Source of the DNA: an uncultured Clostridiaceae bacterium
Lineage (GTDB): Bacteria > Bacillota > Clostridia > TANB77 > CAG-508
Reading direction: 5' to 3'
DNA length: 53,201 bases
Assembly: GCA_958402495.1 (NCBI GenBank)
Contig: CATXTS010000001.1
Location: 1-53,201, forward strand
The position numbers and the translations under genes are program-made. Shown here one piece after another: positions 6,931 through 29,397 of this stretch (its first letter is position 1; each line of letters begins with the position of its first letter). The notes beneath the pieces are model-generated. The model was not told the origin of the DNA. It searched no databases and worked only from the letters and a program-made list of their open reading frames with translations.

Positions 6931-7320
6931 ATGTACGCAATTATTGAAAGCTGTGGAAAGCAATACAAAGTTTCTGAAGGAGATGTTGTATTCTTTGAGA
7001 AATTAGATGCTGAAGAAGGAAAGAAAGTAACTTTTAATGAAGTAGTTTTAGTATCTGATGACAAAAAAGTAGAAGTAGGAGCTCCTTACGTAAAAGGTGT
7101 AAAAGTAGAGGGAAAAGTGATTGCACATGGTAAAGGTAAAAAAATTATCGTTTACAAGTACAAAGCAAAGAAAAACTACAGAAGAACACAAGGACATAGA
7201 CAACCATTTACAAAGGTAGAAATTACTAAAATAGCTATGCCAGCTGCTAAGACAGAAGCAAAAGCAACTGCTGCAAAACCAGCTACTAGCAAAGCAAAAA
7301 CTGAAAAAGTAGAAGCTTAA
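6931..7320 (+). CDS. rplU: 50S ribosomal protein L21 with Lys/Ala-rich C-terminal extension
   Basis: [14 protein letters not shown]... starts at ATG 6931, 9 nt after agggaggtg. The track start at 6919 overlaps the RBS. The tail is [27 protein letters not shown]. Confidence 0.9.
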
Positions 7321-7375
7321 AGTTATAAAAATAGAAGGATAATAAAAATAGATAACACGAAGGGAGTGAGAAAAC

Positions 7376-25844: not shown

Positions 25845-26249
25845 ATGAAATCAAAAAAAACAAATAGTTTAGTTAAAAAATTATCAGAGCTATTTTCATG
25901 TAAAAATCTAGAAAATAATAGATGCAATCAATGTTGCTTTAAGATTATTTGTGATAGCTGTGAATGTAAAGAGGATACTTGTGATGATGATAGATGCATT
26001 TGTGATGTTATCGAATCCATTGCACTGATGGAAGCTGGTTTAGCACATATTCTAAATGCAGAGGGAGAAAAATTACAAAAAGCAATTCAACTTTCTGACA
26101 ATGTATGTGATTTATTAGCAATCAATCAAAATGTTACCAATACGATTAAAAGTATAACAGACTTAGAATGTCTTTTAAATAGAAAATTAGATAATGCTTT
26201 ATCAAGAGAAATAGAAGGAGGTGGAGATTGTGGCAACTATATCAGGTAG
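25845..26249 (+). CDS. cysteine-rich protein carrying the helical module
   Basis: 134 aa with RBS aggagg. The Cys cluster is CNQCCFKIICDSCECKEDTCDDDRCICD, followed by VIESIALMEAGLAHILNAEGEKLQ... Confidence 0.65.
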   Translation: MKSKKTNSLVKKLSELFSCKNLENNRCNQCCFKIICDSCECKEDTCDDDRCICDVIESIALMEAGLAHILNAEGEKLQKAIQLSDNVCDLLAINQNVTNTIKSITDLECLLNRKLDNALSREIEGGGDCGNYIR

Positions 26250-28311
26250 AGTAATATTTGACAGAGCTAGAACAGCAAATGCACTTCCAGGAATGGAAGG
26301 AATTGCAAATGTTCCAGTTGTGTTGCAAAATATAGAAACGAACGAAAGATTAGCAGTTTTAACAGATAGTAATGGAAATTACGTGTTTTTAAATGTGCCA
26401 AATGGAAATTATCGTATTGTGGAAGCTTTTGGAGCACCAGCTGTGCCTACACCAGGCAATTTTAATAATGCAGTAGTAGGAAGTATTCCAGAAGAAGCAA
26501 TGCCACCAATTAGCTATGTAAGCAATCCACCACCAGGTACTACTAATTTAGATGCGACTACACCTAATACGATTTTTATAACAGTGGAAGATGCAGACTT
26601 AGAAAATCAAGATTTTTTAAATGGTCCTGTTCGATATACACCAATTAGCACTATTACAGATGAATGTGCAATCATTTCTCCTATTAATTTAATTAACGTG
26701 GCAGATAATGGTACGTTTGGTACTTTCCCAGCAGGAACACCTGCTAATACTGGTGCAAATCCAAACCCTTATCCAGGGATTGCGCCAGATTTCACGTATG
26801 TATTACCAAACCCAGACACCTACACACCAGATGCTGGTGAGTACACTATTCAAAATTTAATGAATAATTCTTTAAGTAATAGAATAGGGGCTTGGTGGCG
26901 TATTGCAGACCATACAAGTGGCAATGAGATTGGAAGAATGATGGTAGTCAATGGATTTGAGCCAGGTTCTGTATTCTTTAGAGATGTCGTAACCGTACAA
27001 CCAAATACTAATTATTTATTTAGTGCTTGGATTTTAAATATGTTTAAAGCACTAGGCTATGAAAATCCTGCATTAGGAGTAAGAATATTAGATGAAAATG
27101 GAAATGTATTATATAATGCGACCTTAGGAATCTTAATACCTGTTAATGTCAATACACCAGAGTGGAAACAAATTGGTACAGTTATTAATTCTAGGAATAA
27201 TACAACATTAACTGTAGAATTCTTAAGTGAGGGGCCAGAAGCAATTGGTAATGACTATGCAATAGATGATATTTCATTAAATGAAATAGAAGTGCCTGTC
27301 TTTACACCTATAAAAACAGCAAGTACTACAGAATTAGCAGTAGGAGAAGCGGTTACGTATACAGTAACACTTACCAATACTTGTGAAAGTGATTTAACAG
27401 ATGTCTTTTTCCAAGATATTCTTCCAGAGGGACTTTCTTTTGTTCCAAATTCTGTGGTTGTTAATGGAATAGCACAAACAGGTGTAAATCCTAATACAGG
27501 ATTTACTATACCTGATATAGCAGGTGGGCAAACAGCTACTATCACATTTTCAGCAGTGGCAACTTCTGTACCAACTCAAAATCCAACATTAAATCGTGCG
27601 ACTATTACGTATAACTATACGCCAGTAGAAGGAGGAATTCCAGAGACTTTTCAAGTAACGTCCAATGAAGTACCTGTAGAAATTTCAGAAGAAAGTGCCG
27701 ATGTGATGGTTGTAAAAACAGCAAGTCCAACTAGTGTAAATCCAGCAGATAGATTAACTTACCGTATTACGGTTACTAATAATGGACCATCTAATGCAGA
27801 AAATGTAGTATTAACAGATATGATTCCTAATAGTATTCTTAATCCAGAGTATTCTATAAATGGAGGAGTTACTTTTCAACCGTGGACAGGAAGCTTGAAT
27901 ATAGGAACCATGAACAGTTCAGAATCGGTAGTAGTTATTATAAGAGGAACGGTTATGCAAGATACCGATATGCCAATTACAAATACAGCACGAGTAACTT
28001 CTTCGACGCCAGACCCTAACTTAGAAAATAATACGTCTACTATTACAATTAATATTAGAGGTTCAAGATGTCAAGCTATTACAGATATTATAGAATCTGT
28101 AGCTATGCAAGAGACAGCTTTATCACATATATTAAATGCAGAAGGGGAGAAGATACAAGCAGCAGTGGCTATGGAAAATATTACACCAGAACAATTATTA
28201 CAAATCAATCAAAGTGCAACAAATTTAATTAATGGAATTTTTAGATTAGAAACTATTTTACAAGGAAAATTACAATTATTTTCTGGAAAATGTGAAGAAG
28301 AAAATAGCTAA
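26230..28311 (+). CDS. large multidomain surface-type protein: SdrD-B/Cna-B-like domain, jelly-roll (CBM-like) domain, two DUF11-like repeats, C-terminal helical module; no signal peptide
   Basis: GTG 26230 lies 8 nt after aggagg and overlaps the upstream stop by 20 nt. GNYRIVEA is the SdrD-B-like motif. AIGNDYAIDDISL marks the end of a CBM-like domain. LTYRITVTNNGPSNAENVVLTD and VTYTVTLTNTCESDLTDV are DUF11-type repeats. The C-terminus is QAITDIIESVAMQETALSHILNAEGEKIQ... Confidence 0.7.
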   Translation: MATISGRVIFDRARTANALPGMEGIANVPVVLQNIETNERLAVLTDSNGNYVFLNVPNGNYRIVEAFGAPAVPTPGNFNNAVVGSIPEEAMPPISYVSNPPPGTTNLDATTPNTIFITVEDADLENQDFLNGPVRYTPISTITDECAIISPINLINVADNGTFGTFPAGTPANTGANPNPYPGIAPDFTYVLPNPDTYTPDAGEYTIQNLMNNSLSNRIGAWWRIADHTSGNEIGRMMVVNGFEPGSVFFRDVVTVQPNTNYLFSAWILNMFKALGYENPALGVRILDENGNVLYNATLGILIPVNVNTPEWKQIGTVINSRNNTTLTVEFLSEGPEAIGNDYAIDDISLNEIEVPVFTPIKTASTTELAVGEAVTYTVTLTNTCESDLTDVFFQDILPEGLSFVPNSVVVNGIAQTGVNPNTGFTIPDIAGGQTATITFSAVATSVPTQNPTLNRATITYNYTPVEGGIPETFQVTSNEVPVEISEESADVMVVKTASPTSVNPADRLTYRITVTNNGPSNAENVVLTDMIPNSILNPEYSINGGVTFQPWTGSLNIGTMNSSESVVVIIRGTVMQDTDMPITNTARVTSSTPDPNLENNTSTITINIRGSRCQAITDIIESVAMQETALSHILNAEGEKIQAAVAMENITPEQLLQINQSATNLINGIFRLETILQGKLQLFSGKCEEENS

Positions 28312-28700: not shown

Positions 28701-28832
28701 TAGCACTTTACTAGATAGCTATTATGTCATAATCTTGTGTATCGTTTAAAGGAATAGATATCGTATAACCATTAGATACATAATAAGCTATAGCAATTGC
28801 AAGACTAGTATTTCCTTTTTCTTTATTAGTGT
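28701..28832 (-). pseudogene. truncated PD-(D/E)XK endonuclease-like ORF (43 codons)
   Basis: RBS aggagg then MHFHTNKEKGNTSLAIAIAYYVSNGYTISIPLNDTQDYDIIAI*. This follows the N-terminal pattern KGxxxExxxxxxxxxxGYxVxxPxxDxxxYDLIxD of the small PD-(D/E)XK family annotated as group I intron endonucleases. It stops where the catalytic core should begin. Confidence 0.4.
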
Positions 28833-28905
28833 GAAAATGCATAGAAAAACCTCCTAACATTTATAAAATAAAAACAATGTAATATTTTTTATTACATTGT
28901 TTTTG

Positions 28906-29220
28906 TGGTGGGCAGGGATGGATTCGAACCATCGTACTCGTATGAGAACAGATTTCTTACTACTATAGTTTTCACTACCATAAAATGTTTGTAGTCTGGA
29001 CTTTCTCTTTATCTTCTTGTGAGAAGATACCAGGTATAAAGTCTCTACACTCGAAAATTAAATTTTCTAGCTCGGGATTGTCATAGATAATAAATATATC
29101 CTTAGAATTCCCCGAATTAGCCTGGTTATCATCATACAATCACTTGTATGAGCTGCAAATTTAGGTTTTGATAAACCAAAGACCACAGTCTGCCGCCTTT
29201 AGCCACTCGGCCACCTACCC
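28906..29220 (-). tRNA. tRNA-Tyr(GUA) interrupted by a 229-nt intron (exons 29220..29185 and 28955..28906)
   Basis: 5' exon: GGGTAGG-TG-GCC-GAGTGGCTAAA-GGC-G-GCAGA-CTGT. 3' exon: AAA-TCTGT-14-nt variable arm-GATGG-TTCGAAT-CCATC-CCTGCCC-A-CCA. Joined, they give an 86-nt class II tRNA with anticodon loop CTGTAAA. Confidence 0.85.
28956..29184 (-). ncRNA. group I intron (IC3-like) between anticodon positions 35 and 36
   Basis: The 5' exon ends in U and the intron ends in G. Core strings GUGUAGAGACU and AUAAAGAGAAAGUCCA match the P7/P3/P8 and J8/7-P7 regions I recall from the Azoarcus tRNA-Ile and Anabaena tRNA-Leu introns. Also present: P3 CCAGG/CCUGG, P2 hairpin UCAUACAA-GUGA-UUGUAUGA, P8 UAUCUUC/GAAGAUA, and candidate IGS GCAG pairing with exon CUGU (U.G at the splice site). 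Confidence 0.8.
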
Positions 29221-29272: not shown

Positions 29273-29349
29273 TGGTGCTCCCTCAAGGATTTGAACCTTG
29301 GACCCACCGGTTATGAGCCGGTTGCTCTGACCAACTGAGCTAAGGGAGC
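29273..29349 (-). tRNA. tRNA with CAT anticodon (elongator Met or lysidine-modified Ile2; sequence looks Ile2-like)
   Basis: 77-nt cloverleaf: GCTCCCT..TAGCTCAGTTGGTCAGAGC..ACCGG-CTCATAA-CCGGT..AAGGTTCAAATCCTT..AGGGAGC-A-CCA. There is a G1-C72 pair and no GGG/CCC anticodon stem, so it is not an initiator. Confidence 0.85.
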
Positions 29350-29368: not shown

Positions 29369-29397
29369 ATTATACAAAATATTTATAAGAATGTCAA
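29369..29397 (-). promoter_or_regulatory. consensus sigmaA promoter of the tRNA pair
   Basis: The minus strand reads TTGACA (29397-29392), 17 nt, TATAAT (29374-29369), about 20 nt upstream of the first tRNA. Confidence 0.75.

Follow-up and report, generated by a model that had tools for sequence, protein, structure and literature searches.

The window analysed here is a stretch of 53,201 nucleotides (nt) from an uncultured Clostridiaceae bacterium (contig CATXTS010000001.1, assembly GCA_958402495.1). We conclude with high confidence that its positions 29220..28906 on the minus strand form a functional tRNA-Tyr(GUA) gene, in which a group I intron of IC3-like type, 229 nt long and without an open reading frame (ORF), separates U35 from A36, and that this intron copy, probably immobile yet spliced, occupies a locus most likely spread by an endonuclease. 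The split gene consists of the following parts.

29185..29220, minus strand: tRNA-Tyr 5' exon of 36 nt, holding the acceptor 5' strand, the D arm, the anticodon-stem 5' strand and the loop bases C32 U33 G34 U35, and ending ...CUGU with U(-1).
28956..29184, minus strand: group I intron of 229 nt, without an ORF, ending ...UAAG with the omega-G at 28956.
28906..28955, minus strand: tRNA-Tyr 3' exon of 50 nt, holding A36, A37, A38, the anticodon-stem 3' strand, a long variable arm, the T arm, the acceptor 3' strand, A73 and an encoded CCA.

The 5' exon (29220..29185) reads GGGTAGGTGGCCGAGTGGCTAAAGGCGGCAGACTGT and the 3' exon (28955..28906), which begins AAAUCUG and finishes CCA, reads AAATCTGTTCTCATACGAGTACGATGGTTCGAATCCATCCCTGCCCACCA, so that the predicted exon junction joins ...GGCAGACUGU to AAAUCUGUU.... 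The joined exons were recognised by ARAGORN as a class II tRNA-Tyr(gta) of 86 nt with a 7-bp acceptor stem and a long variable arm, and on the genomic DNA the same program, run with introns permitted, reported c[28906,29220] (gta)i(37,229). The original prediction had proposed that the 36-nt and 50-nt halves form a class II tRNA with the loop CU-GUA-AA once 29184..28956 is removed, that the break lies between anticodon positions 35 and 36, and that the 5' exon ends in U and the insert in G (omega-G); ARAGORN agreed with the assembly exactly to the base and with the position of the break, and the two splice-site bases are as described. If the loop is to be canonical and the 5' and 3' splice sites are to follow U and G, respectively, the predicted break CUGU|AAA is the sole boundary possible. 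Default ARAGORN and Rfam at gathering thresholds, applied to the whole window, reported tRNA-Met only and missed the split tRNA-Tyr because of the limits of these tools and not because the gene is absent, and such genes therefore stay unannotated. No second tRNA-Tyr was found within the 53-kb window by intron-permitting ARAGORN.

For the homology of the insert we used an nhmmer profile of nine published bacterial tRNA introns (Leu, Arg, fMet, Met, Ile2 from Azoarcus, Thr) taken from the seed alignment of Williams 2020 (bioRxiv 10.1101/2020.01.27.920355). Both strands of the 53 kb were searched, and the sole significant match was 29125..28958 (E 7.3e-13), which extends from P3 to two bases short of the terminal G. 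The two core strings that the original prediction had picked out, GUGUAGAGACU and AUAAAGAGAAAGUCCA, are both present in the insert, and the kinship it had suggested with the IC3 introns of Azoarcus tRNA-Ile and Anabaena tRNA-Leu is upheld by the profile match together with the covarying helices described below. No ORF and no match to an Rfam family other than the group I intron model was found inside the 229-nt insert. These results support its assignment to the group I introns of the bacterial tRNA-intron lineage, of IC3-like type.

The predicted fold was examined element by element by mapping the helices of the window copy onto an alignment of 50 intron copies less than 94% identical to each other (alignment A1), and the minimum free energy (MFE) structure was calculated for the intron folded alone. 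The elements are listed in order from the 5' splice site, apart from the guide, which precedes the hairpin adjoining it.

29153..29159, minus strand: internal guide sequence 5'-UUUGCAG-3', read from the sequence; P1 is formed by GCAG and exon CUGU, with G.U at the splice site, and P10 by UUU and the first bases AAA of the 3' exon.
29160..29180, minus strand: P1 extension hairpin UUUGGUUU/AAACC-U-AAA; double changes in 6 of 8 pairs.
29132..29151, minus strand: P2, 8 bp, with a GUGA (GNRA) tetraloop; 8 of 8 pairs compensatory, also in the MFE fold.
29121..29126, minus strand: P3 5' strand ACCAGG, pairing with 29034..29029 CCUGGU; 5 of 6 pairs compensatory.
29072..29115, minus strand: P4-P5 domain; P4 UCGGGG/UCCCGA is 100% paired with 4 of 6 pairs compensatory; P5 is UCUAAG...UAUGA.
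29049..29071, minus strand: P6 hairpin GCUAGAAAAU/AUUUUCGAGU; 5 of 7 pairs compensatory, also in the MFE fold.
29039..29045, minus strand: P7 5' strand G(A)GACUU with a bulged A, pairing with 29003..28998 AAGUCC; forms a pseudoknot with P3; 100% paired.
29011..29034, minus strand: P3 3' strand CCUGGU followed by the P8 hairpin AUCUUCU/AGAAGAU of 7 bp; 6 of 7 P8 pairs compensatory.
28998..29010, minus strand: J8/7 AAAGAGA and P7 3' strand AAGUCC; nearly invariant columns.
28959..28995, minus strand: P9 (ACUAC/GUAGU) enclosing P9a (GUAGU/ACUAU); P9 85.6% paired, P9a 100% paired with 4 of 5 pairs compensatory.

Across A1, 87.8% of the helix cells were paired, compared with 33-42% when the 3' partners were slid by 1-3 columns. 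Double changes occurred in 49 of the 72 pairs, and the observed values were reached by none of 500 shuffles. The MFE fold of the intron recovered P2, P4-P5, P6, P8 and P9a (z = -3.0). P2 (8 bp, GUGA), P3, P8 (7 bp) and the GCAG guide facing CUGU with U.G at the splice site, which had been put forward as plausible from the letters, were all found in place. In P7, which is presumed to be the guanosine-binding helix, five pairs were invariant and one showed a UA/AU swap in 8 sequences, and GUAGAGACU...AGUCC is common to the window P7 and to the published introns of Azoarcus and other tRNAs. By comparison with the Azoarcus row CCUAAGC...UAUGG, the P5 segment UCUAAG...UAUGA is an 11-nt GAAA-tetraloop receptor motif, and P9a is capped by a GAAA tetraloop (28973..28970) that is invariant in the alignment. 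The window intron thus carries in its sequence the peripheral elements of the IC3 type (L9 GAAA, P5 11-nt receptor and GNRA L2), the docking itself being predicted. The P5a pairing drawn for the window failed in the relatives and was kept as a local hairpin of the window copy.

The tRNA was assessed in the same way. In the 50 sequences of A1, the cloverleaf across the insert was 99.4% paired, with compensatory changes in 15 of 23 pairs, five of which are acceptor-stem pairs that join the 5' exon to the 3' exon. Moreover, the anticodon-stem pair 27-43, which straddles the insert, occurs as G.U, A-U, C-G, G-C and U-A. The stems that span the insert covary, and therefore the two tRNA halves are maintained as one molecule; by this pattern of substitution, the spliced tRNA-Tyr product is under selection.

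The classical tRNA introns of bacteria, all of them assigned to IC3, are those of Leu(UAA), fMet, Ile2(CAU) and Arg. The closest of these to the present case, in Azoarcus tRNA-Ile(CAU) and cyanobacterial tRNA-Leu(UAA), are likewise about 200-250 nt long, without an ORF and located in the anticodon loop, and they share with the window intron the P2 GNRA loop, the L9 GAAA, a P5 receptor of the CCUAAG/UAUGG type, the P7 strands G(A)GACU/AGUCC and the J8/7 AAGnnAnAGUCC. They differ in the host tRNA and in the insertion site, which follows loop base 3 in Leu and loop base 5 in Ile2 but loop base 4 in the window; and while they are classical self-splicing introns, the window intron is very A+U-rich and is expected to self-splice. 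Set against the classical list, the remark in the original prediction that a tRNA-Tyr host in a clostridial genome is unusual is justified; it does not hold against more recent data, since we found such genes in at least 110 genomes and since Williams 2020 widened the list to 21 isotype/position classes from 80,413 genomes, with Mba143.Tyr.4Ug in the seed alignment. The window intron has the features that define Tyr.4Ug, namely the tRNA-Tyr host, the insertion after the fourth anticodon-loop base, U(-1) and omega-G. Mba143 shares with the window the CUGU/AAA insertion, the guide UUGCAG, the helix plan and the core strings GUAGAGACU and AAGAnAnAGUCC. The published Tyr.4Ug seed is of a Patescibacteria type, with J3/4-P4 GAUAACGGUGAA, a short P1 and a short P9, whereas the window is of a Clostridia type, about 55-60% identical to the former, with a long P1 extension, J3/4-P4 CUAAUUCGGGGAA and a two-tier P9. 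Apart from the Williams 2020 preprint, the tRNA-Tyr group I introns that we met in the literature were organellar and eukaryotic cases, and Lui et al. 2021 reported that the tRNAs of candidate-phyla genomes are hard to find owing to group I introns. The tRNA-Tyr group I intron is not rare, and its kind is already on record, if solely in a preprint and the accompanying software; the window intron is, by sequence comparison, a new member of its Clostridia-type branch.

We scanned species-representative genomes with a pattern that combined the J8/7-P7 core with the tRNA-Tyr 3' half, and 120 matches were listed, which are the basis of the counts below unless another source is named. The same split tRNA-Tyr was present in at least 110 genomes, and 4 further loci were cut by contig ends or N runs. 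The hosts were mostly uncultured gut Clostridia, but Bacilli, Patescibacteria and a metagenome-assembled genome (MAG) of Omnitrophota were also found. In all 104 split tRNA-Tyr genes extracted, exon 1 ends ACTGT, exon 2 begins AAATCTG and the insert ends in G. The closest relative among the matches listed was 91% identical over the split gene and about 72% in the flanking genes, and the source organism can be placed as a relative of uncultured gut 'Clostridium sp. CAG/UMGS' MAGs. At least 12 further intron-bearing loci have exactly the spliced tRNA of the window. Two further split or misplaced genes are mentioned for the record. The locus L118 (Lachnospiraceae MAG) holds another split tRNA with an IC3-like core, a 5' exon ...CAGACTTT, a 3' exon AAAATCTG and an insert of about 449 nt, which is probably a tRNA-Lys(UUU) intron that ARAGORN wrongly assigned to Asn. 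In a MAG labelled Gammaproteobacteria (L017), both the tRNA-Tyr intron and the tRNA-Thr genes upstream of it are of Patescibacteria type, which hints at a mis-binned contig or lateral transfer.

Intronless alleles were also frequent. A metagenome scan for the spliced junction returned at least 4 intronless genes identical to the spliced tRNA of the window, and at least 80 intronless tRNA-Tyr genes differed from it at 10 positions or fewer, 64 of them with a tRNA-Met upstream. When the window was compared with intronless loci by blastn, the alignments ended exactly at 29185. The clearest empty site was provided by the intronless contig L150 and the intron-bearing contig L077 (Clostridium sp. 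CAG:354-like), which share 98.7% identity over the 3.1 kb that end with the last base of exon 1, and whose alignment picks up again at the first exon-2 base, immediately after the omega-G; therefore, the intron was recently gained or lost in near-identical backgrounds. Close relatives thus carry intron-plus and intron-minus alleles, as is expected of a mobile intron. A pattern scan of the IMG/VR viral contigs found no tRNA-Tyr intron and so gave no indication of this element in phages. The matches in IMG/VR were 11 contigs (L241-L251) with tRNA-Leu(taa)-like genes, one of them with a tta anticodon (stop-reading), and inserts of 204-686 nt that fit the J8/7-P7 pattern of group I introns. According to a 2014 review, group I introns of phages had by then been recorded in protein-coding genes only.

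Downstream of the tRNA-Tyr gene lies the remnant of a gene that probably bears on the spread of this locus.

28711..28860, minus strand: endonuclease-gene stump, an ORF of 49 amino acids (aa) with homology from the ATG at 28842 (MHFHTNKEKGN...) and two stop codons after codon 42.

The stump matched Pfam PF11645 (PDDEXK_5) with 29.2 bits at profile positions 2-39 of 138; it keeps ...PLNDTQDYD (the DYD motif), stops after ...DYDIIAI and is without the QVK half of the active site, and no remnant of the C-terminal two thirds of the endonuclease was found downstream in any frame. The window ORF thus holds less than a full PD-(D/E)XK domain, and by its sequence 28860..28711 is the remnant of a homing-endonuclease gene of the I-Ssp6803I type. 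Full-length relatives have 126-127 codons, score 66 bits on PF11645 and match I-Ssp6803I in PDB 2OST (E 8e-5); one of these proteins is named 'group I intron-associated PD-(D/E)XK endonuclease' by NCBI, and NCBIfam has no model for the endonuclease. Close homologues of I-Ssp6803I were described as generally cyanobacterial in a 2012 review.

To relate this gene to the intron, we took those members of the clade whose sequence continues for 550 nt or more downstream and counted the gene within 700 nt after tRNA-Tyr. An intact endonuclease gene was present at 31 of 62 intron-bearing and at 1 of 67 intronless tRNA-Tyr genes (Fisher p = 2e-11), and fragments of it lay beside two further intron-bearing genes. 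In Clostridia the distance from the 3' end of the tRNA to the gene downstream is mostly 55-110 nt, and in a few cases up to about 550 nt. Bacilli were found with the gene in other places: in L016 and L060 (MAGs with a 602-nt intron) it occupies the P1 loop, starts with GTG behind a GGAGG and overlaps the guide sequence and P2 with its last codons, and in L071 (621-nt intron) a more distant PF11645 gene lies in the P6 loop. A close known system is the Synechocystis tRNA-fMet intron with I-Ssp6803I (PDB 2OST; PF11645), which is likewise an anticodon-loop intron with a small PD-(D/E)XK enzyme, and the Clostridia endonuclease aligns with 2OST residues 6-118; compared with that system, the Clostridia gene lies outside the intron, the Bacilli gene in the P1 or P6 loop, and the window keeps 42 codons. 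In the literature we found neither a free-standing gene of the I-Ssp6803I type described next to tRNA-Tyr nor any account of the three positions that it can take.

The split gene is surrounded by the following features.

29273..29349, minus strand: tRNA-Met(CAT), uninterrupted, 52 nt upstream of tRNA-Tyr; Rfam 73.3 bits.
29369..29397, minus strand: promoter-like site, TTGACA, 17 nt, TATAAT, with a 12/12 consensus match, 20 nt upstream of tRNA-Met.
28866..28904, minus strand: perfect 15-bp hairpin of A+T only, followed by a T run, directly 3' of tRNA-Tyr; as read from the sequence.

The pairing of the Met and Tyr tRNA genes likewise occurs in most Clostridia relatives. A terminator scan by a G+C rule called none at tRNA-Tyr, where the A+T-only hairpin fails the criterion; the hairpin at 28866..28904 is a possible terminator. 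Further away, a Cys-rich ORF of 134 aa (25845..26249, plus strand) and a 696-aa DUF11/SdrD-B-like surface protein (26221..28311, plus strand) have the common C-terminal motif ...ALxHILNAEGEKxQxA..., which suggests a shared C-terminal module unrelated to the intron.

Taken with the general knowledge of group I introns, in which guanosine attack, exon ligation and gene conversion triggered by an endonuclease are established (PMC3984707), these features point to the following course of events. The consensus promoter would probably drive a joint transcript of tRNA-Met and tRNA-Tyr. The intron would fold into P1-P9, with the P3/P7 pseudoknot, the L9 GAAA, the matching 11-nt P5 receptor and the GNRA L2, and the guide 5'-UUUGCAG-3' would hold first the 5' exon end CUGU (U.G) and next the AAA with which the 3' exon begins. 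The attack of free guanosine after U35 would be followed by that of the freed 3'-OH after the omega-G (28956), so that the exons are joined to the 86-nt tRNA. The I-Ssp6803I-type endonuclease, whose gene in relatives either follows the tRNA or is contained in the intron, would most likely spread the locus by gene conversion at its presumed target. In the window this gene has decayed to a 42-codon stump; this copy of the intron is therefore probably immobile, a resident that would still have to be spliced.

On a tentative footing, and with the chances somewhat short of even, we presume that in gut Clostridia the ORF-less tRNA-Tyr intron and the free-standing downstream endonuclease make up a two-part mobile unit. 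The enzyme would cut the intronless anticodon region, the intron would protect its own chromosome and both would be co-converted (collaborative homing); the copies in the P1 and P6 loops of Bacilli would be snapshots of a gene entering the intron, and the window would be the end stage, in which the enzyme has decayed and the intron is stranded. The known cases of collaborative homing (cyanophage psbA/F-CphI, T4 mobE/I-TevIII) likewise combine an ORF-less intron with an adjacent free-standing endonuclease gene, but they were described in phages and with other nuclease families, whereas the present intron sits in a cellular tRNA gene, next to an endonuclease gene that is statistically linked to it and whose target is presumed.

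Several observations weigh against our reading of the locus as a functional, spliced and endonuclease-spread tRNA-Tyr gene. The match to RF00028 (Intron_gpI), to which the original prediction had tied its group I assignment, is significant and covers the full model (29180..28979, model positions 1-253, E 1e-8 in a 751-nt search, G+C 33% over the match), but its 40.2 bits lie below the curated gathering score of 50 in Rfam 15, and therefore by the rule of Rfam the intron is not a called member. This gathering score was reached by 3 of 17 related Tyr introns and by none of the Clostridia or Bacilli type tested; according to Williams 2020, the Rfam seed used there was without bacterial members and the work was done at 18-20 bits. 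P1 and P10 rest on conservation (GCAG/CUGU pairs kept in 43-50 of 50 relatives, splice-site U.G in 50 of 50) and not on covariation, because their exon partners are invariant. The distal P5a hairpin of the window is out of register with the relatives (37.6% paired). Self-splicing of the intron is something we infer from its sequence, and the window endonuclease gene is dead, so that mobility of this copy is at best historical. In addition, the metagenome contig L201 has, on its reverse strand, an intronless tRNA-Tyr (7251-7336) with an intact endonuclease ORF 78 nt downstream, which would not be expected if the enzyme simply cut all intronless alleles; it may reflect recent loss of the intron, a gene that moves on its own or a chimeric strain assembly.

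L201 also favours another explanation of the stump, namely that it has nothing to do with the intron and is left over from an independent selfish gene or from an island that integrates at the tRNA-Tyr 3' end. The sequences 3' of the tRNA are unrelated between the 98.7%-identical contigs, as at a tRNA-linked variable site, and 270-290 nt separate the gene from the tRNA-Tyr 3' end in L041 and L087, with further tRNA genes in between (Rfam). We regard this explanation as rather unlikely, although it is the strongest of those considered: it is opposed by the strong statistical link with the intron, by the presence of the same protein family inside the same intron, in two different loops, in Bacilli, and by the only characterised member of the family being a tRNA-fMet intron endonuclease.

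Much less probable, and very unlikely in our judgement, is that the gene is a dead pseudogene whose intron no longer splices while another tRNA-Tyr elsewhere does the work. A second gene could lie outside the 53 kb in view, the adjoining endonuclease gene has already decayed, and the RF00028 score is sub-threshold. Against this, the core elements of the window intron are all intact and identical to those of its relatives, the intron helices and the tRNA stems spanning the insert keep pairing by compensatory changes in at least 50 lineages, the spliced tRNA is the same in other intron-bearing loci and in intronless alleles, and a consensus promoter lies upstream. Protein-spliced tRNA introns use the 37/38 site, and it is highly improbable that the insert is removed by a protein-dependent endonuclease and ligase, is a group II or IS-like element or leaves a permanently split tRNA, as nothing specific favours these routes beyond the splicing chemistry being deduced from sequence, whereas the insert has a full group I core with omega-G, U.G and the P7 G-binding helix, lacks an ORF or another Rfam family, and lies inside the anticodon and not at 37/38.

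The reading of the locus as a spliced tRNA-Tyr gene with a group I intron leaves the principles of group I introns unchanged, and its value lies in correcting how tRNAs are annotated in uncultured Firmicutes and Patescibacteria, as well as in the natural history of introns and their endonucleases. Many uncultured genomes of Clostridia, Bacilli and Patescibacteria will seem to lack tRNA-Tyr, which can be misread as incompleteness or altered decoding. For studies of folding, the intron family provides a natural variant of the Azoarcus-type ribozyme that is very rich in A+U. Moreover, one intron family is associated with the same endonuclease family at three positions (3' of the tRNA and in either the P1 or the P6 loop), and its empty, full and decayed states in nature make it a compact system for the association and parting of introns and homing endonucleases. 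Should the split gene have no other tRNA-Tyr gene beside it in the genome, these organisms would depend on a ribozyme for translation.

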